From Escherichia phage JMPW2, in the sequence record NC_041873.1: 50,298 bases of DNA, one strand, 5' to 3'. The notes below the pieces were generated by a model. It ran no database searches, was not told the origin of the DNA, and saw nothing but the letters and a program-made list of their open reading frames with translations. The stretch's first letter is position 1. The number at the start of each line of letters is the position of its first letter. The position numbers were made by a program, and so were the translations under genes. Below are positions 2,281-49,168 of this stretch, in pieces.

Positions 2281-2472
2281 ATGGCTGATTTTATGCACCA
2301 AATGATTGCAGTATTCAAAGGTAGTGATGACCAGGAGGTGAAAGAGTGCTTTACTGTAGACAAGCCTTATAGCGCATCGCTAACCAGCTTCGGGAATATC
2401 TCATTGCTTGATGATAACGGCGACCCCTGGGTATTCGACGAAGACACTGATTGCTTCGAAATTAAAGAATAG
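2281..2472 (+). CDS. hypothetical acidic protein
   Basis: Track ORF; stop TAG embedded in palindromic box. Confidence 0.5.
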   Translation: MADFMHQMIAVFKGSDDQEVKECFTVDKPYSASLTSFGNISLLDDNGDPWVFDEDTDCFEIKE

Positions 2473-2518
2473 CACTTTTTGTTAAAACTCAATATCGGGG
2501 TTGCGCTATAGTAACCCC
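2468..2518 (+). promoter_or_regulatory. palindromic box plus stem-loop
   Basis: aatagcactttttgttaaaac; hairpin ggggtt...aacccc with TATAGT. Confidence 0.6.
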
Positions 2519-2543
2519 ATCGACAACAAACGAGGACACTAAC

Positions 2544-3032
2544 ATGAAAATCAAATTGCTTTGCACTGGCGGTTACAAGGGCTTTACTCGCGACCTGGAA
2601 GCGGATCCTATCGTGATTGATGCGGTGAAGTGTGATGATAGCCTCGGCGGCTACCGCGTGAAGGTTGACGACCTGGTGAAAGCTGGCGTGTACGATCTGG
2701 GCTATGGACTTTCGGTTAGCCCGGTAGTTGGTCCGGCAGACTTCAACGAGAAGGATGGAACGATGTTCTTCTTCGAATGGGAAGTCCAGGCAAATCCTAA
2801 GCCGCGCAAGGTTCGTCTTCTCAGTAATGGCGGCTACCCGATGCGTCCAGGTTATGAGAATCGCACATTCCCGGTTATCGTTGACTTTGAAGAAATCACC
2901 GCACACTTAGCTTATATCAACGGTGAACAGCTTCATGCTGTTGGATTCGTGGGATGTATGAATCAAGAGGCGCTATGCTTCTTCCATTGTAAAGCCGAGC
3001 CGTTCGATATTGAGTGCGAGTTAGTATACTAA
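2544..3032 (+). CDS. hypothetical protein
   Basis: Track ORF; module and SD acgagga upstream. Confidence 0.6.
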   Translation: MKIKLLCTGGYKGFTRDLEADPIVIDAVKCDDSLGGYRVKVDDLVKAGVYDLGYGLSVSPVVGPADFNEKDGTMFFFEWEVQANPKPRKVRLLSNGGYPMRPGYENRTFPVIVDFEEITAHLAYINGEQLHAVGFVGCMNQEALCFFHCKAEPFDIECELVY

Positions 3033-3077
3033 GCACGAATTGTTAAAAGGGGATTTGGCCTGACTGGTATAATCCCC
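3030..3077 (+). promoter_or_regulatory. palindromic box plus stem-loop
   Basis: taagcacgaattgttaaaag; hairpin ggggatt...aatcccc with TGgTATAAT. Confidence 0.6.
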
Positions 3078-3103
3078 GCATAAACCACTAAGAGGAAAGC
3101 ATC

Positions 3104-3610
3104 ATGTTAAAATTAGAAGACGTAAAATTCCCGATTAAATTTATCAGCCTAGGTTGCGGTGAAATTACATTCACCAGTGAAGATAAAGGCAAGTGGGACA
3201 ATGATAAAATGTCTCAGCTTAAGTTGGATTGGTTTATCAATCGGCACAATGAAGTAAATCCTGAAAACTCAGCCAAGAAGGATTACCATTACATTATTAG
3301 TGGTAGTCAGGATGCGTACGAAAAGTATGATGGTTGGAAAACTGTTCGATCAATCTTCCACCCCGCAAAGCCAGAAATTAAACCGATGTTACAATGCGCT
3401 CAGATCGAGAACATTCCATTGAGCGCGACGCTAAGAGGAGTGCAGCTTGATGATAAATCCTGGCTTGAAATAACCGCCACGCCGAAAACTATTGAAGTGC
3501 ACGACGATATCGTCACTCTTCTATTGCATTACGGCAGCTTTAAGCACAAAGCGGTATCAGGTGAAATCAGCATTAAGCGCGGAACTCTTGTACGCTACGA
3601 GGTGAAATAA
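3104..3610 (+). CDS. hypothetical protein
   Basis: Track ORF; SD aagagga upstream. Confidence 0.6.
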   Translation: MLKLEDVKFPIKFISLGCGEITFTSEDKGKWDNDKMSQLKLDWFINRHNEVNPENSAKKDYHYIISGSQDAYEKYDGWKTVRSIFHPAKPEIKPMLQCAQIENIPLSATLRGVQLDDKSWLEITATPKTIEVHDDIVTLLLHYGSFKHKAVSGEISIKRGTLVRYEVK

Positions 3611-3759
3611 TGGCTGCATGGGTCTTGATTATCTTGATGAGCACCGGGCCGGATCACGTATACATGGAAAGTCGGCAATCATGCAACGAGGCCAGGGCTG
3701 TAATCGCAGAGAATAAGCCGTTCGGATATGAAGTAAAAACGATGTGCGTTAAACGATAG
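3610..3759 (+). CDS. small membrane protein (49 aa)
   Basis: Hand-translated MAAWVLIILMSTGPDHVYMESRQSCNEARAVIAENKPFGYEVKTMCVKR; TAATG overlap with upstream gene; stop TAG inside box. Confidence 0.4.
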   Translation: MAAWVLIILMSTGPDHVYMESRQSCNEARAVIAENKPFGYEVKTMCVKR

Positions 3760-3817
3760 CATGAATTGCTAAACCTTCCGCGAGGCCATTTGTTATAGTG
3801 GCCTTATTGAAGCGCGG
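3756..3817 (+). promoter_or_regulatory. palindromic box plus stem-loop
   Basis: atagcatgaattgctaaacc; hairpin aggcca...ggcct with TGtTATAGT. Confidence 0.6.
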
Positions 3818-3839
3818 CAACCAATCAGAGGAATCAGCT

Positions 3840-4048
3840 ATGGCTACACGACTCACTCAGTAGCAGATTTACGACAAGGCCTCACGCCTTCGTGAATCAC
3901 TTCGAGGTCTGACACCAAACGACCGCATTGAGATTATCGGGCACGCATTGCACGAACTCGCGTCTCAAGACGTAATCTATCATTCATGCGGAAATAAATT
4001 CTGGAACGTGACATTCGAGGTAAAGAAAGATGAGCAAAACTCATAAGT
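3840..4048 (+). pseudogene. hypothetical gene with in-frame TAG at 3861..3863 (codon 8)
   Basis: ATG 3840 preceded by box, stem-loop and CCAATCAGAGGAAT leader; after the TAG the frame stays open 61 codons with no ATG, ending 18 nt into the next gene. Confidence 0.4.
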
Positions 4049-4317
4049 TAAAAATCGCCCCTGTACATTTCATTGGTGTAATGAACGGAACCAAAACGGC
4101 AGAGTTCCGCATCAATGACCGAAACTTCCAATCTGGCGATATCCTGGAGCTATGCGAGTTCGATCGAGATGAGTTTACCGGGTGGGAAGTTCACGCCAGG
4201 GTATCCGATGTTACCGATGTGACGCCATACATCGATCGCGGGTATGACGAGCAAGAATGCGACTTCACGCAATACGTGATGTTATCAATCAAGCCTTACA
4301 GGAAGGTTAGACCATGA
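4030..4317 (+). CDS. ASCH/PUA-like (DUF3850-like) protein
   Basis: N-terminus HKLKIAPVHF...GTKTAEFRINDRNFQSGDIL resembles the ASCH-type pattern; from memory, not searched. Confidence 0.45.
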   Translation: MSKTHKLKIAPVHFIGVMNGTKTAEFRINDRNFQSGDILELCEFDRDEFTGWEVHARVSDVTDVTPYIDRGYDEQECDFTQYVMLSIKPYRKVRP

Positions 4318-4952
4318 AATTTGAATGTGTGCTTAGTAACGGATCTGGATTTAAGTACGGCAAAATCTACGAAGGCGCTCGCGTCAATTGCAACAGCTTC
4401 GTTATCACGGATGAGCGCGGTAGAAATGTTAACGTTGTCCGGCGTCACGAATACCAGGAAATTTTCCTGCCGTACGGCAATAGTTCAAAATACATCTTCC
4501 ATCGAATCGTTGATGGTGTTAAATTTAAAGACGTAATCGAAGCAATCAACCAACTTCATAATAAAGAGGTAAAATTTATGAAATTCGAATGCATCAGCGA
4601 TAACACCAAAAAATTTACTGTTGGCAAAATTTACGATGTTCCCTCTGAGCACGCTAAGCACACGGCTGTAATTACCGACGACACGGGCCGCCACCGCATT
4701 GCAACCGTAACGCACAACGGTGAAGGTCTTCGCTGGAATAGCGGCGGCACTAAGTTCGCAACGTTCGGCAAGAAGCGCAAGCGCACTTTCTGCGTCAAGG
4801 GCAATGTTGCGGCGAACAAGACCCACAACGACAAGGCGTCACAAGTTGACCGCAAGCCAGCATTGAAGTTTGAAGAGAAAGCGGATTTATCCGGCCTGGC
4901 TGTTGCGCTTGTTCTCCTGGTAGCTTCGATTTCGCTGATGTTCATCATGTAA
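4314..4952 (+). CDS. two-repeat small-beta-domain protein with C-terminal TM helix
   Basis: Internal duplication MKFECVLSNGSGFKYGKIYEG / MKFECISDNTKKFTVGKIYDV; hydrophobic C-terminus LAVALVLLVASISLMFIM. Confidence 0.6.
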   Translation: MKFECVLSNGSGFKYGKIYEGARVNCNSFVITDERGRNVNVVRRHEYQEIFLPYGNSSKYIFHRIVDGVKFKDVIEAINQLHNKEVKFMKFECISDNTKKFTVGKIYDVPSEHAKHTAVITDDTGRHRIATVTHNGEGLRWNSGGTKFATFGKKRKRTFCVKGNVAANKTHNDKASQVDRKPALKFEEKADLSGLAVALVLLVASISLMFIM

Positions 4953-4958
4953 TTTTAA

Positions 4959-4993
4959 CGGGGAATCGGATCTGAACGGTTCCCCTTTCTTTT
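4959..4993 (+). terminator. rho-independent terminator
   Basis: GC stem ggggaa...ttcccc followed by tttcttttgg. Confidence 0.5.
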
Positions 4994-5100
4994 GGAGAAA
5001 ACACTATGCCAGACTTTTCTAACTGGAATAACGAGCCGCCATCATTTCAGGAGTTGCTATTTTGCCTCCTGGTCCTGACATTATCTCTTAAGGGTGTTTT

Positions 5101-5319
5101 ATGGCTACTATCATAACCGCAGAAGATGCGGCGCGTGACGCAGTGGAAGGAATGCGCCCAAATACCTCCAGAATCGCCCACTACTACAAGTTTGAGGTGT
5201 CGGCAGTGCAATTGGTCCACGAAATTTTAAGGCTCCCACAAGTCGATTCAGCGCGAGTAGTGACGTGCTTAAAAAATTATTTTTGCATCACTATTAAAAC
5301 GAATAGCACGAATTGCTAA
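5101..5319 (+). CDS. hypothetical protein
   Basis: Track ORF; reads through the box to a TAA. Confidence 0.4.
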   Translation: MATIITAEDAARDAVEGMRPNTSRIAHYYKFEVSAVQLVHEILRLPQVDSARVVTCLKNYFCITIKTNSTNC

Positions 5320-5352
5320 AACCTATCAAGGGGAATGCGCTATGATTCCCCT
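5303..5352 (+). promoter_or_regulatory. palindromic box plus stem-loop
   Basis: aatagcacgaattgctaaaac; hairpin aggggaat...attcccct with TATGAT. Confidence 0.6.
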
Positions 5353-5376
5353 ACACCAACAAACGAGGAAGCACGA

Positions 5377-5823
5377 ATGAAACACCTAATCTGTATTGAA
5401 GCGCCTAACGACGAGTACACTCTGCATGGCTTGGGTATGTTCAAAGGTCACTACATTACAGCTAAGATTCAAGATGACAAGCTGGATGATGGCGATCTGG
5501 AAATCACATCGAAAGAGATTAATCCGTACATCATGCAGAATCTTGGCAATAACGAATATATGGCCTACGGCTGCAATGCGGTGTATAAGCACATTAAGAT
5601 CCGCAAGCGCGTCGTGCGTGCATTCAAGAAGATTGCAATGAAGTACTGGAAGATGAGCAAGAAAGATGCCGGACGCTGGGCGCGCAACGTTGCAGATTCA
5701 TACTTCTATCGTAACGGCGAATCCTGCTACTTCCTGATCGATGAACTTATGGAAAACTACGGTGGCGACTTCAGCCAGGGTAGCTTTGATGACTGGGTCA
5801 ACTATGAGATCAGTTGCTGGTAA
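5377..5823 (+). CDS. hypothetical protein
   Basis: Internal ATG of track ORF 5335..5823 with SD acgaggaag; module upstream. Confidence 0.55.
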   Translation: MKHLICIEAPNDEYTLHGLGMFKGHYITAKIQDDKLDDGDLEITSKEINPYIMQNLGNNEYMAYGCNAVYKHIKIRKRVVRAFKKIAMKYWKMSKKDAGRWARNVADSYFYRNGESCYFLIDELMENYGGDFSQGSFDDWVNYEISCW

Positions 5824-5872
5824 TAGCACGAATTGCTAAAACTTGCTCAAGGGAATTTGTTAGAATGCCCTT
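5822..5872 (+). promoter_or_regulatory. palindromic box plus stem-loop
   Basis: aatagcacgaattgctaaaac; hairpin aaggg...ccctt with TGtTAGAAT. Confidence 0.6.
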
Positions 5873-5906
5873 CGTTGAGTTAAGCAACCAATCAGAGGAA
5901 TAAATC

Positions 5907-6437
5907 ATGGATAAAATCACAATTTGGGGCCAGACAATCAACCTGTTTCTCGGCACGCGCCGCGTGGCAATCTTTGACTTTGACGGGACACTTAGCGATG
6001 GATCTGGTCGACTTCACCTGCTGCCGACAAAGGATTTGCACTTGACTGAAAGCTGGTCTGAGTTTAACCGAGCGGCAATATTTGACGATCCTATTCAGAG
6101 CACTATTGAGGTGATGAACTCATTATTTGCTGCGGGTTATCACGTAATTATCTTAACAGGACGTAGTGATGAGGTGCGTCACGAATCAAAGTTATGGTTA
6201 AAGCGCCACGGTGCGCGATATGATTACCTGATTATGAGGCCGCATACCGACAACCGCAAAGACACGGTAATGAAAGAAGAGGCAGTGCGCGCTATCGGCA
6301 TTGATAACATTCTTGCGGCTTGGGATGACTCAGTGAATATAATAAAAAAATTCAGAGATCTAGGGATAACCACATATCAGGTTTGTGAATATGCCTGTGA
6401 TAGTCGAGAGGATTTAAATAGTCATGGTGTCGATTGA
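5907..6437 (+). CDS. HAD-family phosphatase (nucleotidase or polynucleotide 3'-phosphatase-like)
   Basis: HAD motif I FDFDGTL near N-terminus; conserved leader upstream. Confidence 0.6.
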   Translation: MDKITIWGQTINLFLGTRRVAIFDFDGTLSDGSGRLHLLPTKDLHLTESWSEFNRAAIFDDPIQSTIEVMNSLFAAGYHVIILTGRSDEVRHESKLWLKRHGARYDYLIMRPHTDNRKDTVMKEEAVRAIGIDNILAAWDDSVNIIKKFRDLGITTYQVCEYACDSREDLNSHGVD

Positions 6438-6918
6438 TAACAAATCAATGGTAAGAGAGTTATTTACTTATTCTGACGGCGTTCTGTATTGGAAGGCCAA
6501 ATCATCTAAATACAGTAGAGCTAAAATAGGAGGCGCGGCAGGAAGCAAGGATAAAGACGGATACATAATAATCAGAGTAAGAAACGAAACTAGAGGCGCT
6601 CACAGGCTTGTATGGATATACCATAATGGCAAGATACCTGATGGAATGGAGGTAGACCATATGGATGGAGACATAACAAACAATAGAATAGAAAACCTAA
6701 GATTGGTAACGAGAACCATAAATAACAGGAATCAAAAAAAGAGATCTGATAACACAACCGGAGTATCCGGTGTAACTTTCATGAAAGATAGAGGAAAGTA
6801 TAGGGCGCAAGTTAGAAACAAGAGACTCGGGCAGTTCGACACAATAGAAGAGGCCGCCAAAGCAGTAAAGGATGAGCGGGATAGATTAGGTTTATTCACA
6901 AAAAGACACGGGGTGTAA
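6424..6918 (+). CDS. HNH homing endonuclease with AP2-like domain
   Basis: Motif EVDHMDGDITNNRIENLRLVT plus TTGVSGVTFMKDRGKYRAQV; paralogous to 42263..42745 and 46320..46859. Confidence 0.8.
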   Translation: MVSIDNKSMVRELFTYSDGVLYWKAKSSKYSRAKIGGAAGSKDKDGYIIIRVRNETRGAHRLVWIYHNGKIPDGMEVDHMDGDITNNRIENLRLVTRTINNRNQKKRSDNTTGVSGVTFMKDRGKYRAQVRNKRLGQFDTIEEAAKAVKDERDRLGLFTKRHGV

Positions 6919-6920
6919 AC

Positions 6921-7493
6921 ATGAAAACAGCTATCATTTTAAACGGCGCACCTGGTGCGGGAAAGGACACTATCGGATGCATCCTGGCTGACACTTACGA
7001 TCACGTGGCGCTACGCAGCTTTAAGGCTCCGATGTTTGAGATTGCCCGAGCAATATTGGGTGAGGCTAATTTCGAATATTTCATGTTCTTGTATGAGGAC
7101 CGTCGCTATAAAGAAGAGCCAGCATCAATCCTGAACGGTAAAAGCCCGCGCCAGTTTATGATCTGGATTAGCGAGGAGGTCATCAAGCCGCAGTTCGGAA
7201 ATCGCTTCTTCGGTATGCGAGCGGAAAGCAAGGTGAAAGAGTCTCACTCCCTTTCGGTATTTACTGACGGTGGATTCAAAGACGAGATCTTGCAGATGAT
7301 TGAAGGTGATATCCAGGTAAAGCTATGTCGAATCCATCGCAACGGTTGCAACTTTGACAACGACAGCCGAGACTATATCTATCTTGACGATATGATCGGG
7401 GTCAACGGTTATCAGGAGTGCGACTTCTTTTCTGTCGAAGGCCATCCAGAAATTACCGCTCAGCACATAGCCGCCACGTTCATCAATAAATAG
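6921..7493 (+). CDS. P-loop kinase (T4 gp1-like dNMP kinase or polynucleotide kinase)
   Basis: Walker A GAPGAGKDT at N-terminus; LNGKSPRQ resembles T4 dNMP kinase. Confidence 0.6.
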   Translation: MKTAIILNGAPGAGKDTIGCILADTYDHVALRSFKAPMFEIARAILGEANFEYFMFLYEDRRYKEEPASILNGKSPRQFMIWISEEVIKPQFGNRFFGMRAESKVKESHSLSVFTDGGFKDEILQMIEGDIQVKLCRIHRNGCNFDNDSRDYIYLDDMIGVNGYQECDFFSVEGHPEITAQHIAATFINK

Positions 7494-7542
7494 CACGAAT
7501 TGCTAAAACGTCGATGGGGTGATTTGATATAGTTACCTCATC
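7489..7542 (+). promoter_or_regulatory. palindromic box plus stem-loop
   Basis: aatagcacgaattgctaaaac; hairpin gatggggt...acctcatc with TGaTATAGT. Confidence 0.6.
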
Positions 7543-7565
7543 GACAACGAAGAGAGAAAATCGAA

Positions 7566-7775
7566 ATGATGGTATCAACTGATAAGTTTTTCACCTGCAC
7601 TAAAACCTCTGAAGTATTCGAGCTTGTTCATACTGATAATGGTGATTTCATGCATGACGGTTGCGACGTTTTTATCGAAGTGAAAGAAAGCGACTATGAT
7701 GACGGAGTTTATTATAACCCGGCAGTGAACACTCAGTTCTTTACACCGATCGAAGAAGAAGGAGAAGAGGCATGA
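7566..7775 (+). CDS. hypothetical acidic protein
   Basis: Track ORF; module and SD upstream. Confidence 0.5.
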   Translation: MMVSTDKFFTCTKTSEVFELVHTDNGDFMHDGCDVFIEVKESDYDDGVYYNPAVNTQFFTPIEEEGEEA

Positions 7776-8116
7776 TTACGATTAACTTGTCAGATAAACA
7801 AGCGCGCGAACTCCTGGATACGATTGGTGAACAGCTTCACGTAAAAGGTGCTGCGGCTGAACTACTTAACCAGATCGAAAGGCAGCTTACCCCAGCATCA
7901 ACCAACCAAGCTGATTTTGCAGCCTGGAAAAGCGAGCGAATCCTGCCAAATATCATCAAGGCATGGAAGCGCAAGCATAAAAAAGAAATCAATGTTGATG
8001 ATTTATTTACCGATGAATTAAGTCCTTCAAAGGTTGCTCAATATCAGTTGCGATACATGGAGTCGGTTTGCAATCAGGTTTTAGGTGTTAATTTTTCATT
8101 TGGGAGAGGTAAATAA
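7772..8116 (+). CDS. hypothetical protein
   Basis: Track ORF; ATGA overlap with upstream gene. Confidence 0.5.
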   Translation: MITINLSDKQARELLDTIGEQLHVKGAAAELLNQIERQLTPASTNQADFAAWKSERILPNIIKAWKRKHKKEINVDDLFTDELSPSKVAQYQLRYMESVCNQVLGVNFSFGRGK

Positions 8117-8346
8117 TGTTCGGTTTAAGTGAGGCAGAATGGAACGTAGTAAAGCGCGCGGCGAAGGAATTAAATAAATTCGTTAGCGGCATGAAGAAGG
8201 AAGATCGTAAAAACGACAAGATCATGATTGACGTGATTTCTACTCACCACAAAAAGGTCGAGCTACTCATCGACCGATACAAGTTTGTCTGGACTGCCGG
8301 GTATATTGCCGGGCGCGTAGGTAACAAAGAAGGGGATTACGAATAA
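8116..8346 (+). CDS. hypothetical protein
   Basis: Track ORF; TAATG overlap. Confidence 0.5.
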   Translation: MFGLSEAEWNVVKRAAKELNKFVSGMKKEDRKNDKIMIDVISTHHKKVELLIDRYKFVWTAGYIAGRVGNKEGDYE

Positions 8347-8549
8347 TGGCTAATTTACCGAAGAAAGGCGATCAGGTTCGATGCTTCACGTCACGCAATA
8401 GCGATGCTTTCTCAGCGGGGTGCTTGTACGATGTTGAAAAGGTAAGTAAAGCAAATAGACTCGTATATGTGTACGGTGACGATGGAAACCTTCATGAAAT
8501 TGATTACCCGCAGGATATGACTAAGGGGCAATTCGAAACTAATGATTGA
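8346..8549 (+). CDS. small-beta-domain family protein
   Basis: Track ORF; shares the K-x-C...G-x-x-Y...D-D-G pattern with 4314, 42818 and 46856 genes. Confidence 0.5.
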   Translation: MANLPKKGDQVRCFTSRNSDAFSAGCLYDVEKVSKANRLVYVYGDDGNLHEIDYPQDMTKGQFETND

Positions 8550-8710
8550 CCTACGTCTCTGAGCGGTGATAGTATTAATCCCGTAGACAAACGAGGCGCA
8601 ATGAAGCGCAACGCGTGAGACGATTCTCACACTTCCAGCTAACAAGCTCGGTTGCATAGTGGTTAAGCAACGCCGCAGACCCGTAAGCGGCAACAATTCA
8701 AGAGGATTGC

Positions 8711-8875
8711 ATGATGCAAAACACCAAAGACGAATCAGTAAAAATTGAAATTAAAGTAACTCGCAACGGTGAAACCACTCGTTATAAAAAACGATTAAAT
8801 CCGGGAGAGGCTGTTATTGGTCGAATTGCTGGCGTTATGATTAAGGCGCAGGAAGATGAAGCGATTCAAGGTTAA
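8711..8875 (+). CDS. hypothetical small protein (54 aa)
   Basis: Hand-translated MMQNTKDESVKIEIKVTRNGETTRYKK...; SD aagagga upstream. Confidence 0.4.
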   Translation: MMQNTKDESVKIEIKVTRNGETTRYKKRLNPGEAVIGRIAGVMIKAQEDEAIQG

Positions 8876-9041
8876 ATTAATTATTCGAAAGATGGGGATG
8901 TTTTGCCAGTCGTGCAAACAATCTTTCGAAACAGAATTATCTGCAACCAGTCAGGCAGAAGCCATCACGAAAGCAAAAAAACTTTCAGGCGCTAACCTTG
9001 ACACTCACAAAATAAACATTGAATTAATCAAGGAGATTTAA
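8856..9041 (+). CDS. hypothetical small protein
   Basis: Track ORF; start uncertain (internal ATGs at 8892/8898). Confidence 0.35.
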   Translation: MKRFKVKLIIRKMGMFCQSCKQSFETELSATSQAEAITKAKKLSGANLDTHKINIELIKEI

Positions 9042-9042
9042 C

Positions 9043-9270
9043 ATGACCATTTTTTTATTGATTATCTCTGGTATCGTTATTTTTGGTGCTGGTTTGTTTG
9101 CTGGCTTCGCACTTGTTGCGGCAGCAATTGCGATGGACGCTAAGGATAAAACTGGTGTATGGCTGACCTACTCACCTAAGAAGGACCAATGGGAGATGAC
9201 TGGCGACCTTGCTCACTGCTACTCTAAAGCTCAGACCCACCCTAAAGGAATTAAGCGACTATTGTCGTGA
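9043..9270 (+). CDS. small membrane protein
   Basis: N-terminal hydrophobic helix IFLLIISGIVIFGAGLFAGFALVAAAIA. Confidence 0.5.
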   Translation: MTIFLLIISGIVIFGAGLFAGFALVAAAIAMDAKDKTGVWLTYSPKKDQWEMTGDLAHCYSKAQTHPKGIKRLLS

Positions 9271-9280
9271 TAAACACTAA

Positions 9281-9301
9281 CCCGCTTCGGCGGGTTTTTT
9301 T
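9281..9301 (+). terminator. rho-independent terminator
   Basis: cccgcttcggcggg hairpin plus T7 run. Confidence 0.7.
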
Positions 9302-9319
9302 ATGCCTGCAATATGGTAA

Positions 9320-9339
9320 AATAGCACTAAATGTTAAAC
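9320..9339 (+). promoter_or_regulatory. palindromic box variant upstream of terminase small subunit
   Basis: aatagcactaaatgttaaac. Confidence 0.45.
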
Positions 9340-9354
9340 AAAGAGGATGGATTT

Positions 9355-9879
9355 ATGAGTGAACCTAAGAACGCTCCCGTAGTCCAGGGAGGTAATTTCA
9401 AAGAGCTATACAAGAAAAAGTTTGGCACTGTACTCGCGAAAAACCGGGCGATGACGCCAGAGCAACTATTCGATCTGTCAGTGAAGTATTTCGAATGGGC
9501 CGAGGACAACGCAATCAAGGCGTCAGAATCAGCCAGCTTTCAGGGTGGCGTTTATGAATCGCTTGTCCATAAGCCGCGCGTCTTCACCTGGACCGGATAC
9601 CGACTATTCATAGGAGCAAGCGAGGCCGCAATCATTAAGTGGAAGCGAGAGGAAGAATACAGTGAGGTTATGGAGTTCGTGGAATCCGTAATCAACGAGC
9701 AAAAATTTCAGCTTGCCGCCAACGGTGTTATTAATGCCTCCTTTATCGGTAAGGATCTCGGAATCGATAAGCCAGCATCAATCAATATCGAAAACTCGTC
9801 AGCTTCCGCATCGACAGTAGTTGCCACTACTGAGGATGCAATGAAAGAGGCAGTAAACAGCATTCTTGATATGCTTTAA
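9355..9879 (+). CDS. terminase small subunit (by position)
   Basis: Immediately upstream of large terminase; ATG 9355 with SD aagagga; track start 9331 lies inside the box. Confidence 0.5.
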   Translation: MSEPKNAPVVQGGNFKELYKKKFGTVLAKNRAMTPEQLFDLSVKYFEWAEDNAIKASESASFQGGVYESLVHKPRVFTWTGYRLFIGASEAAIIKWKREEEYSEVMEFVESVINEQKFQLAANGVINASFIGKDLGIDKPASINIENSSASASTVVATTEDAMKEAVNSILDML

Positions 9880-9918
9880 CGTTAGGGGCGCGCGAGCGCC
9901 CACATGGGAGACTTAATC

Positions 9919-11487
9919 ATGATTCAATGGGAAGACCTTAACGCAACGCAGAAGTTAGCGATCAAGAAAATGAGCGAGGCCAATTTCGAAAAAATGATTC
10001 GGATCTGGTTCCAGCTTATGCAGGCGCAGCAGTTCCAGCCTAACTGGCATCACCTTTACCTATGTCACGAAGTGGAGGAAATTATTGCAGGGCGGCGAGG
10101 GAATACAATCTTTAACGTCACACCAGGTTCCGGTAAAACTGAAGTGTTCTCAATTCACCTTCCGGTGTACGCAATGCTCAAGTGTAAGAAGGTGCGAAAC
10201 CTTAACGTGTCGTTTGCTGACAGCCTGGTTAAGCGTAACAGTAAGCGCGTCCGTGAGATTATCAGCAGCAACGAATTTCAAGAGTTATGGCCTTGCAAGT
10301 TCGGCACATCGAAAGATGAGGAGATGCAGGTTCTTAACGAAGATGGAAAGGTTTGGTTTGAGTTGATATCCGCAGCGGCTGGCGGTCGTATTACTGGTTC
10401 GCGTGGTGGCTACATGACGCCGGGATTCTCAGGTATGGTAATGCTCGACGATATCGACAAGCCTGATGATATGTTCTCAAAGGTTAAGCGTGAGCGTACG
10501 CACATGCTATTGAAAAACACCATCCGTTCCCGTCGTATGCATAACGAGACGCCTATTATTGCAATTCAGCAACGACTACATGCTCAGGATTCAACCTGGT
10601 TCATGATGAATGGCGGGATGGGCATTGAGTTTGACCAAATCTCAATACCGGCGCTGGTGACGGAAGAATACGGAAAGACACTTCCTGATTGGTTGCAGCC
10701 TTACTTTGAGCGTGATGTTTTATCGTCTGAGTATGTAGAATTGGATGGCGTTAAGCATTACTCTTTTTGGCCCAGCAAGGAAAGCGTTCACGACCTGTTG
10801 GCGTTACGAGAAGCAGATCAGTATACCTTTGATTCTCAGTATCAGCAGAAACCGATCGCGCTGGGTGGCTCCGTGTTTAACTCGGAGTGGTGGACTTATT
10901 ACGGCAGCAGTCTTGATGCTGACGAGCCAGATCCGGGTAAATATGATTACCGATTCATCACTGCCGATACCGCTCAGAAGACAGGCGAGCTAAACGACTA
11001 CACGGTATTTTGTTTGTGGGGCAAGAAGAATGATAAGGTTTACTTTATCGACGGCATTCGCGGAAAGTGGGAAGCGCCGGATATGGAGAGGCAATTTACA
11101 GCTTTCGTCAATCAGGCATGGAGGCACAATAAATCAATGGGGGTACTTCGTAAAATCTATGTGGAAGATAAGGCGAGCGGTACTGGCTTAATCCAGAACC
11201 TAAGGAAAAAGACTCCGATATCCATCACTCCATTGCAGCGTAACAAAGACAAAGTTACCCGAGCTATGGATGCTCAGCCAGTTATTAAAGCCGGGCGTGT
11301 GGTTCTGCCAGAAGAGCACCCTATGCTTGCTGAAATTATCGCTGAGCACAGCGCCTTTACTTACGATGACACCCACCCGCATGATGATATCGTCGATAAC
11401 TTCATGGATGCGGCGAACATCGAATTGCTGACCATTGATGATCCTATCGAGAGAATGAAGCGACTCGCTGGGATGGTTAAGCGGTAA
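9919..11487 (+). CDS. terminase large subunit
   Basis: About 520 aa; Walker-like TPGSGKT; nuclease-like acidic C-terminal half; ATG 9919 with SD gggag. Confidence 0.8.
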   Translation: MIQWEDLNATQKLAIKKMSEANFEKMIRIWFQLMQAQQFQPNWHHLYLCHEVEEIIAGRRGNTIFNVTPGSGKTEVFSIHLPVYAMLKCKKVRNLNVSFADSLVKRNSKRVREIISSNEFQELWPCKFGTSKDEEMQVLNEDGKVWFELISAAAGGRITGSRGGYMTPGFSGMVMLDDIDKPDDMFSKVKRERTHMLLKNTIRSRRMHNETPIIAIQQRLHAQDSTWFMMNGGMGIEFDQISIPALVTEEYGKTLPDWLQPYFERDVLSSEYVELDGVKHYSFWPSKESVHDLLALREADQYTFDSQYQQKPIALGGSVFNSEWWTYYGSSLDADEPDPGKYDYRFITADTAQKTGELNDYTVFCLWGKKNDKVYFIDGIRGKWEAPDMERQFTAFVNQAWRHNKSMGVLRKIYVEDKASGTGLIQNLRKKTPISITPLQRNKDKVTRAMDAQPVIKAGRVVLPEEHPMLAEIIAEHSAFTYDDTHPHDDIVDNFMDAANIELLTIDDPIERMKRLAGMVKR

Positions 11488-11541
11488 TAAATGAGATATA
11501 ATCAGGGCTGTCAATTGACGGCCCTTTTTATTGGAGGAAAC

Positions 11542-12825
11542 ATGAAAATTGTTAAGCATGATGGATATAACGATATCTTTAACGGCGGCGCGGACGGATC
11601 GCCTAAGCCATTCTTTATGTCTGATGCATCATATCACGTCGGTTCTTTCTACAACGACAACGCAACCGCGAAGCGAATTGTGGATGTTATCCCGGAAGAG
11701 ATGGTGACGGCTGGTTTTAAAATGTCAGGCGTTAAGGATGAAAAAGAGTTCAAGTCTTTATGGGATAGCTACAAACTTGATTCAAGTCTGGTGGATCTTC
11801 TTTGTTGGGCGAGACTTTACGGTGGCGCGGCTATGGTGGCAATCATCAACGACAACCGGATGTTAACCAGTCAGGCAAGGCCTGGAGCTAAACTTGAAGG
11901 CGTCCGAGTTTACGATCGATTCGCTATCACTGTTGAAAAGCGAGTCACCAATGCAAGATCCCCTCGCTATGGTGAGCCTGAAATTTACAAGGTATCACCT
12001 GGCGACAATATGCAGACGTATCTGATTCATCACTCAAGAGTCTTTATTGCTGATGGTGAGCGAGTAACGCAACAGGCAAGAAAGCAGAATCAAGGATGGG
12101 GAGCTTCGGTATTGAACAAGTCACTGATTGATGCAATCTGTGATTATGATTACTGTGAATCTCTTGCTACTCAGATCTTGCGACGTAAGCAACAGGCTGT
12201 ATGGAAGGTCAAAGGTCTTGCCGAAATGTGTGATGATGATGATGCTCAGTATGCCGCGCGCCTGCGACTTGCTCAGGTTGATGATAACTCCGGCGTAGGT
12301 CGTGCGATCGGTATCGATGCTGAGACTGAGGAATATGACGTTCTCAACTCTGATATCAGCGGAGTTCCTGAGTTCTTATCAAGCAAGATGGACCGCATCG
12401 TCTCACTATCCGGGATTCATGAGATTATCATTAAGAATAAGAACGTAGGCGGCGTGTCAGCGAGTCAAAACACAGCGCTTGAGACTTTCTATAAGCTAGT
12501 CGACCGCAAGCGTGAGGAAGACTACAGGCCGCTTCTTGAGTTCTTGTTGCCGTTCATTGTTGATGAGGAAGAGTGGTCGATCGAGTTTGAACCTTTGTCT
12601 GTTCCGAGTAAGAAAGAGGAATCGGAGATCACGAAGAATAACGTTGAGTCAGTCACGAAGGCTATCACTGAGCAAATCATAGATCTGGAAGAAGCTCGCG
12701 ACACGCTGCGATCCATTGCCCCTGAGTTCAAACTCAAGGATGGTAATAACATCAACATTCGCGAACCGGAAGAAACAACCGAACCGGAACCGGGATTATG
12801 GGAGAAGTTAGAATATGAAAATTAA
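11542..12825 (+). CDS. portal protein
   Basis: About 430 aa directly after terminase; acidic C-terminus; SD ggagga. Confidence 0.75.
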   Translation: MKIVKHDGYNDIFNGGADGSPKPFFMSDASYHVGSFYNDNATAKRIVDVIPEEMVTAGFKMSGVKDEKEFKSLWDSYKLDSSLVDLLCWARLYGGAAMVAIINDNRMLTSQARPGAKLEGVRVYDRFAITVEKRVTNARSPRYGEPEIYKVSPGDNMQTYLIHHSRVFIADGERVTQQARKQNQGWGASVLNKSLIDAICDYDYCESLATQILRRKQQAVWKVKGLAEMCDDDDAQYAARLRLAQVDDNSGVGRAIGIDAETEEYDVLNSDISGVPEFLSSKMDRIVSLSGIHEIIIKNKNVGGVSASQNTALETFYKLVDRKREEDYRPLLEFLLPFIVDEEEWSIEFEPLSVPSKKEESEITKNNVESVTKAITEQIIDLEEARDTLRSIAPEFKLKDGNNINIREPEETTEPEPGLWEKLEYEN

Positions 12826-13576
12826 TGGCGTTGCAACACAGTGGCGCTATCCTGAAATGAGCGAGCGCGCAATGTCGCGCTCCCTACAGGATGTTGCAGC
12901 CAAACTAACTGAAAAAATGCGTGACGAATTAAAACCGATGAAATTTGACGCTACCGACGAAGAGATAGATCAGACAGAAAGGTCATTGCTTGATTACGTT
13001 GAATCACTCATCACTCCGATTATTGGTTCTCTATCATCCGTTGCGCTCACGATCTATAAATTCAACTCTAAGCAGTGGCTGCGTATCGCTCGCAATGCTG
13101 GAGGTAAGAAGAATCAAGCCGTTATGCTACTTGCCCTGATTGGTCCTACCGCTGCTGAAAGCTGGTACTCAGGACAATATAATCTGTGGCGATCGCAGGT
13201 GACTACTTCTATCAGGAAATTTGCCGCCAACATGGTTACTGATTTCACTGATAAACTTCGTGCGGCATCCGGTCAGGGTAAAAGCAAGGATTTTGTTGTT
13301 GAACTTGCTAAGGAGCGATTTGGTATTTACCGTAGCTGGGCCAAAAATAGAGCGTCGGGAATTGTCGGAGCCTGGAACAGTAGACTGATGCGGCAGCGCA
13401 TAAAAGACGCTGGTGTATCTTACTATTTCTGGCGCGGGGTGATGGATTTACGCGAACGTGAAAAACATGTAAGATGGGAAGGTAAGCGCATAGCGGTAGA
13501 TTCCGATCACGTATTCCCGGGTGAAGAATACAACTGCCGCTGTTGGGCTGTTCCAGACTTTTCTACAGGAGATTAA
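12815..13576 (+). CDS. head morphogenesis / minor head protein
   Basis: Position after portal; overlapping start. Confidence 0.55.
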   Translation: MKINGVATQWRYPEMSERAMSRSLQDVAAKLTEKMRDELKPMKFDATDEEIDQTERSLLDYVESLITPIIGSLSSVALTIYKFNSKQWLRIARNAGGKKNQAVMLLALIGPTAAESWYSGQYNLWRSQVTTSIRKFAANMVTDFTDKLRAASGQGKSKDFVVELAKERFGIYRSWAKNRASGIVGAWNSRLMRQRIKDAGVSYYFWRGVMDLREREKHVRWEGKRIAVDSDHVFPGEEYNCRCWAVPDFSTGD

Positions 13577-13578
13577 AA

Positions 13579-14691
13579 ATGAAGGCAAAGCAAAGATTCG
13601 ATTCAGTAAAAATCAAGGCTCACTTTGATGATAACGGTTTTTTAGTTGACCGCCCAATCGTGGCGCGAATCGGCGCTCAGGTTTACAAAACGCCGCACGG
13701 CGATCGAGTTGAGTTCCGTCCGGCGTCCGAAGTTTTCAAGCAAGATTCCTTGCAAAGTTTTGCAGGCAAGCCGATAACAGTCGGTCACGTAACGGTGACA
13801 CCCCAAAATGCTAAGGACGTTGTTGTCGGATCGTGTGCTGGCGCTGGTATTGCTTCAGGGGTTGGCGTTGAAGTTCCTTTGAGTATTTACAGCGACTACG
13901 CGATCAGCAAAGCTAAAGCGAAGGAGGCCGGGGAATTATCTGTAGGGTATACGTCGGTAGATATTGATAAGCCCGGCTGGGGTTCAAATGAGACTGGAGA
14001 ATATATCTTCGAAGAGGATATGAAACAGGACGAAGCGCCGCCTGAAGGTTGGGTGAAATTCGACGCGGTACAAACTAATATCAAGGTCAACCATATTGCC
14101 CTAGTTTTTAAAGGTCGTGCGGGAATTGCTAAATTAAATCTTGATGCCGAACAGGAGTTCCCGTATGATAATAACGTTCAATTAACTAACGAGGACAAGC
14201 AAATGAAAAAAATTAAGATCGACTCAGTTGATGTGGAAGTAACCGAAGACGTTGCGAACCATATCGAAAAATTAACCGCGCAGATTGCCACCATTCAGGG
14301 GAAAGCTGATGGCTTCGAAGCTGAGCGCGATGCGCTGAAGGTTAAGGTTGACTCTCTGCCGGAACTTGTGAAGGCCGAGGTAGAGAAGCAAAAAGCCGAT
14401 GCCGCCGCACGCGCAGAAGTTACCGCAGTAGCAGAAACCGCAGGCGTCAAACATGATGGTCTTGATATCAAAGACGTCAAGATTGCCGTAGTTAAAGCCA
14501 TGCTTGATAAAGATGTTAGTGAAAAATCAGACGCATATATCGACGCTATGTTTGATGTTGCTAAAGATTCTGATATCATGGCTATTCAGCGTAAAGCAGT
14601 AAAAGGCGACTCTATCGAAGGCGGTAAGCCGGAAGAGAAAAACGACGCCGCGCCTGTTACGCCAAATTCACGTTTAAGCAAAGTAATGTAA
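13579..14691 (+). CDS. prohead scaffold/protease-like protein
   Basis: Position between portal module and capsid genes; C-terminal coiled-coil-like charged region. Confidence 0.5.
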   Translation: MKAKQRFDSVKIKAHFDDNGFLVDRPIVARIGAQVYKTPHGDRVEFRPASEVFKQDSLQSFAGKPITVGHVTVTPQNAKDVVVGSCAGAGIASGVGVEVPLSIYSDYAISKAKAKEAGELSVGYTSVDIDKPGWGSNETGEYIFEEDMKQDEAPPEGWVKFDAVQTNIKVNHIALVFKGRAGIAKLNLDAEQEFPYDNNVQLTNEDKQMKKIKIDSVDVEVTEDVANHIEKLTAQIATIQGKADGFEAERDALKVKVDSLPELVKAEVEKQKADAAARAEVTAVAETAGVKHDGLDIKDVKIAVVKAMLDKDVSEKSDAYIDAMFDVAKDSDIMAIQRKAVKGDSIEGGKPEEKNDAAPVTPNSRLSKVM

Positions 14692-14702
14692 GGGGAAATA
14701 TC

Positions 14703-15179
14703 ATGGCACAAATTAATGCATCTTATCAGCGAGATATGGCGATTGCGCTTCCGGGTATGGTTGCGGATACTTCAAAGTACAATATTGACGGCGCTTGTGT
14801 CGTTAATGAAGGTGATGTTCTTGTTGGCGCTGCCGTACAAGTTGTTCAAGCTCAGGCGGTTGATGGTCATAAGTTGGTTAAGGCTCTTACTACCGGAACC
14901 ACTCCTTACGGCGTGGCAATCCGATCTCACTGGCAGACTGTTAACGCTCAAAATCAGATGATTTACGAAGATGGCGGCGCTATCAACGTGATGACTTCAG
15001 GCCGAGTATGGATGCTTTCCAAATCCACCGAAGCACCAACTTTCGGCTCTGCCGTTAAACTTGATGTTGATGGTCAGGAAAAATCTGATGGCACGATCGA
15101 AACAACCTGGACCTACGCTGGCGGTTGGACTAAATACAAAGATATTCAGCTTGTTGAGGTTCAGTTGCATCAACTGTAA
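14703..15179 (+). CDS. capsid accessory/decoration-like protein (paralog A)
   Basis: Shares NIDGACV, TPYG, SGRVW blocks with 15242..16009. Confidence 0.5.
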   Translation: MAQINASYQRDMAIALPGMVADTSKYNIDGACVVNEGDVLVGAAVQVVQAQAVDGHKLVKALTTGTTPYGVAIRSHWQTVNAQNQMIYEDGGAINVMTSGRVWMLSKSTEAPTFGSAVKLDVDGQEKSDGTIETTWTYAGGWTKYKDIQLVEVQLHQL

Positions 15180-15194
15180 TTAGCGTTTAATATG

Positions 15195-15227
15195 GGGACT
15201 ATCTTTTTTTTGGATAGTCCTTTTTTT
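15195..15227 (+). terminator. rho-independent terminator
   Basis: ggactatc / gatagtcc stem flanked by T runs. Confidence 0.6.
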
Positions 15228-15241
15228 ATGGAGAAATCATT

Positions 15242-16009
15242 ATGGCTTACGAAAATTTGTTCTTGCGCCCCGCGTGTCCGGGAAATATTTCTGATACTTC
15301 AACCTACAATATTGATGGAGCTTGTGTGGCTCAAGGTGACATTGGGTTCGGCTCAGCGGTTCAGGTTGTAGGCATCGTTGACGGTGTAAAAGTTGTGGCG
15401 GCGCTTCCTGATGGTGGAACTCCTTACGGTATCGCTTTCCGTTCCCAATATGAACACCTGAGCGGTAAAATCCTTGACGGTGAAGTGTGCAACGTCGTTT
15501 CTCACGGTCGCGTATGGACTCTTACTTCTCTTGGTGAGGCTCCCAGCTTGTTCTCAAAGTTACAGTTTGGGTCTGGTGGAGTTGTTACTGGTGGATCTGG
15601 TTCCGCAGGTTGGACATTTGCGGGTGGCTTTGTTAAGCATGAAGATGGCTACATCATTGAGGTTCAGGTGAAACAAAATGCTTTCATCGCTCCACCGCCA
15701 CCGCCCCCTGTCGTTCTTGTTGAATCTGCTACAATCGCCACTGACAAGGAAAGCCCTCAACCAAACAATGTTACGATCCAGTGTGTAGCTAATGCTCTTC
15801 CGGATAATGCAACCGATAAGACTGGTAAATGGTCAATCGACGCTACCAATATCGCCACTGTCGATCCGGACTCAGGTCTTGTAACTCCTGTTGGTGGAGA
15901 GGTAGTCGGTGATTTCAATATTACCTGGACGGCTAACGATGCCAGCAAGACGACGGCAACTATTGCTTATCGCGTAGAAGCAGTGCCAACGCCAGAGGTT
16001 GATGCATAA
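15242..16009 (+). CDS. capsid accessory/decoration-like protein (paralog B) with polyproline linker and Ig-like C-terminus
   Basis: Paralog of 14703; PPPPPPP linker then beta-rich domain. Confidence 0.5.
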   Translation: MAYENLFLRPACPGNISDTSTYNIDGACVAQGDIGFGSAVQVVGIVDGVKVVAALPDGGTPYGIAFRSQYEHLSGKILDGEVCNVVSHGRVWTLTSLGEAPSLFSKLQFGSGGVVTGGSGSAGWTFAGGFVKHEDGYIIEVQVKQNAFIAPPPPPPVVLVESATIATDKESPQPNNVTIQCVANALPDNATDKTGKWSIDATNIATVDPDSGLVTPVGGEVVGDFNITWTANDASKTTATIAYRVEAVPTPEVDA

Positions 16010-16029
16010 CATAAAAACACTTTGACGCT

Positions 16030-16046
16030 TTAACAAAAAGTGCTAT
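16030..16046 (-). promoter_or_regulatory. palindromic box upstream of major capsid gene
   Basis: ttaacaaaaagtgctat followed by hairpin with CATAAT loop. Confidence 0.5.
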
Positions 16047-16053
16047 TATTGAA

Positions 16054-16080
16054 GCCGTGAACATAATCACGGCTTTTTTA
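16054..16080 (+). terminator. rho-independent terminator / stem-loop
   Basis: gccgtga...tcacggc stem plus T6; loop contains CATAAT. Confidence 0.6.
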
Positions 16081-16100
16081 TTAACTACGGAGAAGTAATA

Positions 16101-17060: not shown

Positions 17061-17066
17061 TATTAT

Positions 17067-17095
17067 AGGGGCTAACTTAGTTAGTCCCTTTTTTA
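17067..17095 (+). terminator. rho-independent terminator
   Basis: ggggctaac / gttagtccc stem plus T6. Confidence 0.6.
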
Positions 17096-17109
17096 TTGGA
17101 GAAATCAAA

Positions 17110-17397
17110 ATGGCTAAAGAAAAAACTGTTGTTATCGTAAACGTTGGTGTAGCTCTTCAGATGTTCCGTCTTGAAGATGGTTCCTTTGCTAAAGTTCTTC
17201 CAGATGAAGAGGTCACGCTTCCGGCGTCCGTTCTTGATTTGCCTGGCCTGCGTTGCTTAATTGCTCGCGAAGAAATCGAAGTTAAAGACGACAGTGCAAC
17301 CAACCGCAAAATCCGCGCTGAAATGGCAAAGATCACTAAGCCAGATCCGTGGGATAGCAAAAGCGTTAAAGAGCTTGAGGACGGCGGCGAATATTAA
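17110..17397 (+). CDS. hypothetical structural protein
   Basis: Track ORF; SD ggagaaa. Confidence 0.5.
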   Translation: MAKEKTVVIVNVGVALQMFRLEDGSFAKVLPDEEVTLPASVLDLPGLRCLIAREEIEVKDDSATNRKIRAEMAKITKPDPWDSKSVKELEDGGEY

Positions 17398-42817: not shown

Positions 42818-42994
42818 ATGAAGATAGTCAAGTGCATCCGAAATGACTCCAAAACACTTCCATTCCGTGTAAATCAGATCTATAGTGTTGGTTATGATTT
42901 CGGTGGGGGATTATTTGAGATTTACGACGGGCGAGGTTCAGCAATCCAGACTCCTCTGAACGGTCACTACCTGGAATTTATTGAGATAGATTAA
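42818..42994 (+). CDS. small-beta-domain family protein (58 aa)
   Basis: Hand-translated MKIVKCIRNDSKTLPFRVNQIYSVGYDFGGGLFEIYDGRGSAIQ...; below track cutoff. Confidence 0.45.
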   Translation: MKIVKCIRNDSKTLPFRVNQIYSVGYDFGGGLFEIYDGRGSAIQTPLNGHYLEFIEID

Positions 42995-46320: not shown

Positions 46321-46859
46321 CACAATAAACTCCTTAGTTGACGGCGTGAATGATACACCGTCAATGGTACACGCGTTTTGCAAAAAGTGCTATTCGATCC
46401 GTGATTCTCATGAAAACCGTATAGCCTTTCCGCTTCCTTCCTTGCTTTAGCCGCTGCATCCAGCGTCATGAAGGTCCCTAAGTGTTTTGTCTTTTTATTT
46501 ATGGTTATGTTTGCCGTGTATCTATTTGTTTTTTTATTCCAATACACTCCCATAACTCCTGTGTTTGATGACACTACTCCCTTGTTTCTTAGGTTGTCTT
46601 GCCTAGTTACTAGCCTGAGATTCTCAATTCTGTTATCGTCTCTTTCATGGTTTATGTGGTCTACATCCATTCCTTCTGGTATGTTTCCGTAGTGTATTTT
46701 CCATACTATTCGATGGGCGTATTCAAATACACCTCCTGGAAAACATATTGACCGATAACCTTTTTTATTAACAGTTCCGGCAAGTAGATTTCGTCTTCTT
46801 CCGATTCTCCACTCTTTCCAGTACAGTCTCCCGCTAACGTATTTCAGTTCATCTTTCAT
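46320..46859 (-). CDS. HNH homing endonuclease with AP2-like domain
   Basis: DVDHINHERDDNRIENLRLVTRQDN plus SNTGVMGVYWNKKTNRYTA; third paralog. Confidence 0.75.
   Translation of the reverse strand: MKDELKYVSGRLYWKEWRIGRRRNLLAGTVNKKGYRSICFPGGVFEYAHRIVWKIHYGNIPEGMDVDHINHERDDNRIENLRLVTRQDNLRNKGVVSSNTGVMGVYWNKKTNRYTANITINKKTKHLGTFMTLDAAAKARKEAERLYGFHENHGSNSTFCKTRVPLTVYHSRRQLRSLL
46339..46393 (-). promoter_or_regulatory. palindromic box plus stem-loop (minus strand)
   Basis: Minus-strand atagcactttttgcaaaac, hairpin gacggtg...cgccgtc with TGTATCAT, SD taaggag. Confidence 0.55.
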
Positions 46860-47272
46860 AAGTATTTACTCTCAAAGGTTGTGCCGTCTGCGATACTAAA
46901 ACCAACCTCTTCGCGGAATAAGGTCCAGCGGCAACCGTCCTCATCAAAGATGTAACCAGCTACGCCTCCAAGAGCGCGACCGCTTTCTACCTGGTAACGC
47001 TTTCCAACCTTGAATGATTTTTTCATTGGGTTGCGATGGTCAAGTCCGGTGCACTTGAGCGTCTTTGTTTTCAACTCGGTGAACTTCGCGAAGAAGATTT
47101 CATCAGATCCGTGAATATGTAATTCATCATGCTTTTCAAGTTTTAAATACTTCCCGCATTTTAACTTTACTTCACGAGTATCATCATAGCGCTCACGACC
47201 TTTATACAGATTGTTTACTTCGAATCCTGTGATTTTGTCTGCTGAAGTGCATTTAAGTTTAATGGTTTTCAT
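46856..47272 (-). CDS. small-beta-domain family protein (two repeats)
   Basis: KLKCTSADKITGFEVNNLYKG and KTLKCTGLDHRNPMKKSFKVGKRYQV repeats. Confidence 0.5.
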   Translation of the reverse strand: MKTIKLKCTSADKITGFEVNNLYKGRERYDDTREVKLKCGKYLKLEKHDELHIHGSDEIFFAKFTELKTKTLKCTGLDHRNPMKKSFKVGKRYQVESGRALGGVAGYIFDEDGCRWTLFREEVGFSIADGTTFESKYL

Positions 47273-48982: not shown

Positions 48983-49168
48983 TTAGAATTTTACATCTTC
49001 AACAAGCTCGACAAATTTGTACCCCAGGCGATAGGAGTCGCCGAACAACAATAACCCCATAAATTCATCTTTGGTTATCGACTCCTTACCAACTGTTCTA
49101 AGCTCTCCGTTGTGAATAACAGTATCGCCGATCTTGATTTCTGATTTATGCACTAATTTCGTTTTCAT
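48983..49168 (-). CDS. hypothetical small protein
   Basis: Track ORF; weak RBS. Confidence 0.4.
   Translation of the reverse strand: MKTKLVHKSEIKIGDTVIHNGELRTVGKESITKDEFMGLLLFGDSYRLGYKFVELVEDVKF

Follow-up and report, generated by a model that had tools for sequence, protein, structure and literature searches.

The 50,298 bases of the Escherichia phage JMPW2 record, which we call the window, are the whole stretch of DNA that was analysed and make up the complete genome of a T1-like siphovirus (Tunavirus, Drexlerviridae). Gene order in the window matches that of phage T1, and the region 3000-9500 is about 92% identical to Escherichia phage Eco_BIFF, IME18, JMPW1 and others. Several small genes of this genome carry copies of one domain. 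As judged by sequence comparison, four of them, named here A, B, C and D, form a single paralogous family, and a fifth, gene F, is probably a further member; the total is five genes and seven domain copies of about 55 residues each (Table 1). The left plus-strand block, ahead of the terminase, contains genes A, B and F, the right minus-strand block contains gene D, and gene C is found just upstream of the holin. Public records label A, B, C and D as 'hypothetical protein'. An initial annotation, made from the letters of the sequence, had proposed a dispersed paralogous family of small beta-rich domains with members in both early blocks and beside the lysis cassette, and both the profile comparisons and the structure predictions described below agree with that proposal. 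The domain is of ancient origin, and its paralogous copies are dispersed over the T1-like genome.

Table 1. Genes carrying the domain in the JMPW2 window, their parts, and other features discussed in the text. Positions are those of the window, except in the last row.
Feature	Position	Strand	Description
Gene A	4314..4952	+	212 residues; two domain copies and C-terminal transmembrane helix; PHROG 10580; T1 equivalent gp68
Gene A, copy A1	4314..4484	+	residues 1-57; outsider profile domain E 7.2e-6
Gene A, copy A2	4569..4769	+	residues 86-152; hub of pairwise similarities
Gene A, basic linker	4770..4886	+	residues 153-191; region 151-190 has isoelectric point 10.3 and 12 K+R in 40 residues
Gene A, C-terminal transmembrane helix (tail anchor) and stop codon	4887..4952	+	residues ~192-212
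Gene B	8346..8549	+	67 residues, isoelectric point 4.9; one copy; ortholog of T1 gp58; PHROG 4927
Gene C	42818..42994	+	58 residues; one copy; ortholog of T1 gp14; Pfam DUF7244
Gene D	46856..47272	-	138 residues; two copies; ortholog of T1 gp7; PHROG 2684
Gene D, copy D1	47075..47272	-	residues 1-66; second half diverged
Gene D, copy D2 and stop codon	46856..47074	-	residues 67-138; outsider profile domain E 3e-7
Gene F (probable member)	2281..2472	+	63 residues, acidic, isoelectric point 4.05; one copy; PHROG 11551
Gene E (non-member)	48983..49168	-	61 residues; PHROG 3623
Terminator-like hairpin and T-run	4960..4995	+	directly after gene A; closes the ASCH-A transcription unit
Bas11 family loci (record MZ501085.1)	33759-33929, 37578-37943, 42369-42554, 45147-45338, 47025-47219, 47216-47653		

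Over 171 domain copies the signature reads [VLI]-[KR]-C, 6-12 residues, [FLW]-x-x-[GN]-K-x-Y-x-[VI], 6-14 residues, [IV]-x-D-x-x-G, 8-20 residues and F-E, so that the motif initially described proves essentially right. Conservation reaches 95% for the Cys, 96% for the F/L/W position, 94% for G/N and 99% for the Tyr; in the D-x-x-G turn it is 75% for D and 96% for G. An AlphaFold2 model of the domain has five strands, which are antiparallel and form a small barrel whose nearest solved structures are SH3 domains. Each copy is thus predicted, with moderate confidence, to be an independently folding five-stranded SH3-like beta-barrel. In this predicted fold, strand 1 holds the Cys, strand 2 the stretch [FLW]-x-x-[GN]-K-x-Y-x-V and strand 5 the F-E pair, and the D-x-x-G hairpin joins strands 3 and 4. 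The conserved residues are strand or core positions and tight-turn positions; the loops between strands 1 and 2 and between strands 2 and 3 vary in length and sequence. Resemblance to the eukaryotic peptide-binding SH3 domains is limited to 5-17% identity, and SH3_1 is matched insignificantly by a few relatives (E 0.05-0.1). When the family profile was run against the sequences of solved structures, nothing scored below E 0.75. The designed 'Cake' propellers of the PDB, matched by gene B, were rejected: their score sums weak repeats, with no single significant stretch.

Pairwise comparisons connect the copies unevenly. The internal duplication of gene A (A1-A2) has a Smith-Waterman z of 12.5 against 1,000 shuffles; weaker links centre on A2 (z 5.2 with B, 3.8 with D2 and 3.4 with C), and C is linked to D1 at z 3.2. 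Several other pairs stay at noise level (A1-B 1.1, B-C 0.0, B-D1 -0.15). Profile-profile alignment with hhalign, which used shallow alignments of orthologs, gave probabilities of 95% for A1-A2, 57% for A2-C (E 1e-4), 48% for C-D1 (E 1.8e-4), 18% for A2-D2 and 10% for A2-B. Leave-one-out profiles were run against the 488 six-frame open reading frames (ORFs) of the window: genes A, C and D each rank first (E 2.6e-6, 4.9e-3 and 2.2e-4, respectively) and gene B ranks second (E 0.096).

The decisive comparison relied on relatives that do not belong to the phage group. We searched 1.84 billion representative proteins by HMMER with a 25-sequence domain alignment as query and obtained 98 proteins at E<=1e-3. 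From 26 proteins, comprising 65 domain copies, we derived an 'outsider' profile, excluding any protein with a BLASTP E<1e-4 to a window protein. Genes A (55.2 bits, E 1.4e-16), B (39.8 bits, E 8.6e-12), D (36.4 bits, E 9.9e-11) and C (23.7 bits, E 9.2e-7) are its top four among the 488 ORFs, and the best non-candidate ORF scores 3.7 bits. The maximum over 9,760 shuffled decoys is 10.6 bits with the outsider profile and 10.7 bits with the full profile, so that all four genes exceed every decoy. Large repeat proteins require caution in such searches. P0077 (3030 residues), P0088, P0096 and about 17 other large proteins were discarded as spurious; they match profile positions ~31-49 only, never the full domain, and score down to E 2e-29 through a repeated T-D-D-C-G-N hairpin (HYR-like repeats). 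Owing to these proteins, whole-sequence E-values mislead when members are counted. Two other kinds of search added little: word-index homolog searches returned close Drexlerviridae orthologs only, and tblastn of the outsider consensus and of the metagenomic relative P0094 against the phage collection gave no match, BLAST being too insensitive for this family.

Library profiles lead to the same grouping by another route. P0094 matches PHROG 4927, the family of gene B (2.8e-28), PHROG 10580, that of gene A (5e-12), and DUF7244, that of gene C (9e-6), and a second intermediate, P0120, matches PHROGs 4927, 10580 and 4788 together with DUF7244. Because the outsider-profile scores clear the decoys and the library profiles cross-link through these intermediates, we regard the family as real for A, B, C and D. 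The opposite view, that there is no true family and that the motif is a chance likeness among short beta-rich ORFs, can draw on the insignificant single pairs (A1-B, B-C, B-D1) and on the low hhalign probabilities for some comparisons, but it has to contend with outsider-profile E-values of 1e-16 to 9e-7, clear of all decoys, with the recovery of each gene by leave-one-out profiles and with the cross-linking of families by Pfam and PHROG profiles; we find it hardly credible. Chance likeness is excluded for A, B, C and D; it is conceivable for gene F, which reaches 13-20 bits, and for D1 where it has diverged, in its second half. Taken together, homology and an SH3-like fold appear highly probable to us.

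The count of five genes and seven domain copies given at the outset holds, although its composition changes: genes A, B, C and D stand, gene E, initially named as a possible member, is removed and gene F, overlooked initially, comes in as a probable one. The outsider profile gives gene F 13.4 bits and the iterated or full profile gives it 19.9 bits, above all 9,760 decoys in both cases. Its alignment spans F-T-V-x-K-x-Y ... L-L-D-D-N-G-D ... F-E and lacks the conserved Cys. Gene F is conserved in 62 phage records; T1 does not have it. Gene E was rejected as a member, with a core profile score of -0.9 and no match at E<=10 with the iterated profile, and neither Pfam nor the PDB offers a match for it. 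From the sequence, its K-I-G-D-T-V ... motif gives the impression of another small barrel.

Gene A contains two copies and a transmembrane helix, as first described; it is the only gene of the family with such a helix. The hydropathy maximum over 19 residues (Kyte-Doolittle) is 2.66 at residue 194, and AlphaFold places a helix at residues 192-211; in a single-sequence AlphaFold model of the full-length protein (mean confidence, pLDDT, 38) this helix is the sole confident part. Gene A shows the features of a tail-anchored protein: a lone C-terminal transmembrane helix, no signal peptide and positive charge on the N-terminal side of the helix. According to the positive-inside rule the basic linker would lie on the cytoplasmic side, and both barrels would thus be cytoplasmic and tethered to the inner face of the membrane. 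The helix is common to T1 gp68 and to the relative P0163. The locus itself takes several forms, with a fused two-domain gene, split genes or a one-domain gene. Copy A1 is a separate small ORF in some relatives (P0044, P0048, P0073), and T1 gp68, with 124 residues, consists of the second domain and the membrane helix alone and begins exactly at A2. Copies A1 and A2 both start with ATGAAATTYGAATG, and recombination between such paralogous domain starts may therefore have made or broken the A1-A2 fusion. Upstream, an ASCH-domain gene (4030-4317, plus strand), which RefSeq relatives label 'RNA-binding protein', shares the ATGA at its end with the start of gene A; neither this gene nor copy A1 is present in T1. 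An annotated rho-independent terminator follows gp68 in T1, at the same relative position as the hairpin after gene A.

Gene D also contains two copies, as initially stated, both of them matched by profiles. In D1 the outsider profile match (domain E 0.005) covers the first half, and the DUF7244 match (14.5 bits, E 0.038) falls under the cut-off; D1 of orthologs such as P0079 retains the V-x-D-x-x-G turn. The stop codon of gene D overlaps the ATG of a downstream HNH endonuclease gene (46320-46859) by ATGA. Gene C starts 73 nucleotides past another HNH gene (42263-42745) and ends about 55 nucleotides before the holin ORF. The window has three paralogous HNH genes, these two (on the minus and plus strand, respectively), which adjoin family genes, and one at 6424-6918 on the plus strand. 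Near the right end, past the last T1 gene, lies a 251-residue ORF (49448-50203, minus strand) whose position, and position only, matches that of the annotated Dcm-like cytosine methyltransferase of phage Bas11. Distribution in related phages, one of the checks proposed at the start, is patchy: 66 phage records have gene A, 62 gene F, 101 gene B and 822 gene D, many of the last by D2 alone. This patchiness suggests that the family genes are accessory.

Of these genes, only C had been recognized previously, in Pfam and in a recent study. Gene C matches DUF7244 (PF23896) over its full length with 99.8 bits (E 8.8e-29; cut-off 27 bits). Eremina et al. 2026 (PMC13164509), working on the T1-like phage KanT1, described the DUF7244 protein as a standalone SH3 domain of the Pfam SH3 clan on the basis of AlphaFold3 (AF3) and Foldseek, and found its gene in 188 of 522 Drexlerviridae, always adjoining the lysis cassette. 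They proposed for it a role in support of the endolysin, such as cell-wall-binding SH3 domains have in phages of Gram-positive hosts. Their DUF7244 search was a profile search at E<=1e-5, and the word 'paralog' is never used. Gene C shares with that protein the 58-residue length, the position before the holin and the SH3-clan fold; A, B, D and F, by contrast, lie elsewhere in the genome and include other architectures (double domain, tail anchor). Against DUF7244, with its cut-off of 27 bits, A, B, D2 and F give no match at E<=10 or E<=1 and thus fall outside the curated boundary. They carry no annotation as relatives of C, and in the literature we located nothing on A, B, D or F, their PHROG numbers, the paralogy or phage SH3 multigene families.

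The intermediates extend the family in another direction. DUF6501 (PF20111; cut-off 23.8 bits) is matched by P0089 (73 bits), P0094 (41 bits) and P0133 (40 bits), although a Pfam search finds no direct match to it for any window protein, and metagenomic relatives match DUF6501 and DUF7244 within the same proteins. These profile matches place the window genes and both Pfam families, together with several dozen PHROGs (10580, 4927, 4788, 2684 and 11551 among them), in one superfamily. Almost all of these PHROGs are without assigned function. The distant relatives have 2-7 tandem copies per protein, some with C-terminal coiled coils; among 20 multi-domain relatives no fusion was informative, one fusion with DUF3310 aside.

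Phage T1 has four family members, and Bas11 (MZ501085.1), which represents a different subfamily, has its own set of five or six copies: bas11_0041, 0048, 0061, 0071, 0079 and perhaps 0078, all annotated as hypothetical. Multiple copies per genome are therefore general in this phage family. Bas11 also encodes Gp54 (PF25180, PDB 9axb), a protein that triggers the CapRel-SJ46 defence protein and has six strands in its crystal structure (Zhang et al. 2024, PMC11578894). It shows no detectable sequence relationship to the domain described here: a 90-sequence family alignment against 12 Gp54 homologs gave an hhalign probability of 0.2%, and phmmer found nothing below E 1.5 among the window ORFs. 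The SH3b domains of endolysins (SH3_3, SH3_5, SH3b_T) share the general fold class and, with gene C, the association with lysis genes. However, SH3b domains work beyond the membrane, as parts of peptidoglycan hydrolases or exported alongside them, whereas the window proteins have no export signal, no SH3_3/SH3_5-type Pfam match and no hydrolase fusion.

The largest expansion of the domain was found outside cultured T1-like phages, in a 40.7-kb metagenomic contig with a GC content of 23.6% (ENA ERZ28616081, MUNK22-1 scaffold_178; L005 below). It is likely of phage origin, although only one neighbouring gene matches a PHROG. In the 18 kb of L005 that was read, 45 ORFs carry the domain (2308-17466), most of them in three head-to-tail runs of genes of 64-68 residues, and one 704-residue protein contains six copies. 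For 38 of the single-domain genes the identity has a median of 52%; hardly any change is seen in the scaffold columns, while those of the 1-2, 2-3 and 3-4 loops are hypervariable. The single-domain copies nearly all end in a conserved tail, LSEIRNETINKLLE, which T1-like copies do not have. Multigene families comparable to this 45-copy tandem family occur in large eukaryotic DNA viruses.

No signal peptide or N-terminal hydrophobic segment was found in the five proteins (the 19-residue Kyte-Doolittle maximum is <=0.35 in B, C, D and F); all copies should therefore be cytoplasmic. The paralogs differ in charge, with isoelectric points of 4.0-5.6 for B, C and F, 9.6 for A and 9.1 for D, and in architecture, B, C and F having a single domain, D two domains and A two domains plus the membrane helix. 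Nothing in the analysis favours the shared host target suggested initially; with such unlike charges and loops, distinct partners are the likelier case. We favour, tentatively and at somewhat less than even confidence, the view that these are diversified cytoplasmic binding modules, that is, accessory proteins for host interaction or counter-defence. The grounds are the fixed core with variable loops, the differences in charge and architecture, the patchy distribution, the tandem relatives and the L005 array, and the same features lend indirect support to the 'diversifying function' suggested initially. One sturdy scaffold would be used as a set of binding modules with differing specificities: the non-essential accessory proteins would bind host (or phage) proteins stoichiometrically and so contribute to host takeover or counter-defence. 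B, C and F would act as free single domains, D as a double domain, and A as a double domain at the inner membrane face, held there by its tail anchor. We may go further and suppose a phage 'binder scaffold' in which gene duplication diversifies the loops, so that whole sets of inhibitors or decoys arise that act on the immunity or physiology of the host; this stronger version we consider rather doubtful.

Several points weigh against the binding-module reading. The basic proteins A and D could bind nucleic acid instead, and gene A is translationally coupled to the ASCH gene, of RNA-binding type. Diversification is best documented in a distant metagenomic relative, outside this phage. A pure scaffold model leaves the nearly invariant single Cys unexplained, and the strict synteny of gene C with the lysis genes may point to a particular function of this one copy.

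Nucleic-acid binding is one alternative. Small barrels of the Sm, KOW, Tudor or Sso7d type bind RNA or DNA, and family members might regulate phage or host expression in a similar way. Besides the isoelectric points of A and D and the overlap of gene A with the stop of the ASCH-domain gene, the coupling of gene D to an HNH nuclease within a replication-gene operon and the label 'DNA binding protein' of the related PHROG 14634 are in keeping with such a role. Yet B, C and F are acidic, the outsider domains have a median net charge of 0 and reach -11, and the 171 copies show no conserved basic or aromatic surface motif beyond the core residues; the putative label of PHROG 14634 belongs to a 245-residue protein with other regions. 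We judge this explanation to be unlikely, as a whole, for the family. The HNH genes invite another explanation, in which the domains are cargo or helpers of mobile homing-endonuclease cassettes and either move together with the three HNH paralogs or help them. Genes C and D do adjoin HNH genes, and HNH genes change location among T1-like genomes; but A, B and F are not adjacent to any, the third HNH gene has no family neighbour and the D-type gene of Bas11, bas11_0048, has no adjacent annotated HNH gene. Furthermore, KanT1 has C without HNH, and across 522 genomes HNH presence is uncorrelated with C, an association that the KanT1 study found to be sporadic (PMC13164509). Such a link to the cassettes seems very improbable.

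There remains the role proposed by Eremina et al. 2026 for DUF7244, an auxiliary lysis factor in which an SH3b-like module binds the cell wall and aids the endolysin. The place of gene C between an HNH gene and the holin, the constant association with the lysis cassette in those Drexlerviridae that have it, and the frequent pairing of endolysins with SH3-type cell-wall-binding domains in phages that infect Gram-positive bacteria all speak for it (PMC13164509). As a function of the family, however, it meets serious difficulties. A, B, D and F, four of the five genes, are located in early-type blocks at a great distance from lysis functions, neither a signal peptide nor an N-terminus resembling a signal-arrest-release (SAR) sequence is present in any member, no Pfam cell-wall-binding SH3 family is matched, and gene A would be tail-anchored with its domains in the cytoplasm. 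Pinholin holes are too small for folded proteins, and a pinholin system does not release folded cytoplasmic proteins before lysis. The lysis system here consists of a pinholin and a SAR endolysin (PMC13164509). We find a lysis factor improbable as an account of the family; a lysis-helper role may be considered at best for gene C alone.

In T1-like phages, roughly every second gene is without assigned function. Five such genes (T1 gp68, gp58, gp14 and gp7, and the gene at 2281-2472) can now be tied to one predicted SH3-like scaffold, and two Pfam DUFs and many separate PHROGs merge into one superfamily. Since the 'lysis-module SH3' would have four paralogs that are cytoplasmic and lie in early blocks, cell-wall binding or lysis help is unlikely as the role of the family as a whole. 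If the binder-scaffold idea is true, the lysis-module protein would be one paralog of an arms-race family. The tandem arrays, in which the scaffold is constant and the loops are hypervariable, suggest that diversification of one small binding domain is a strategy of phages in general, and they point to a widespread phage scaffold that is able to expand into large multigene arrays.

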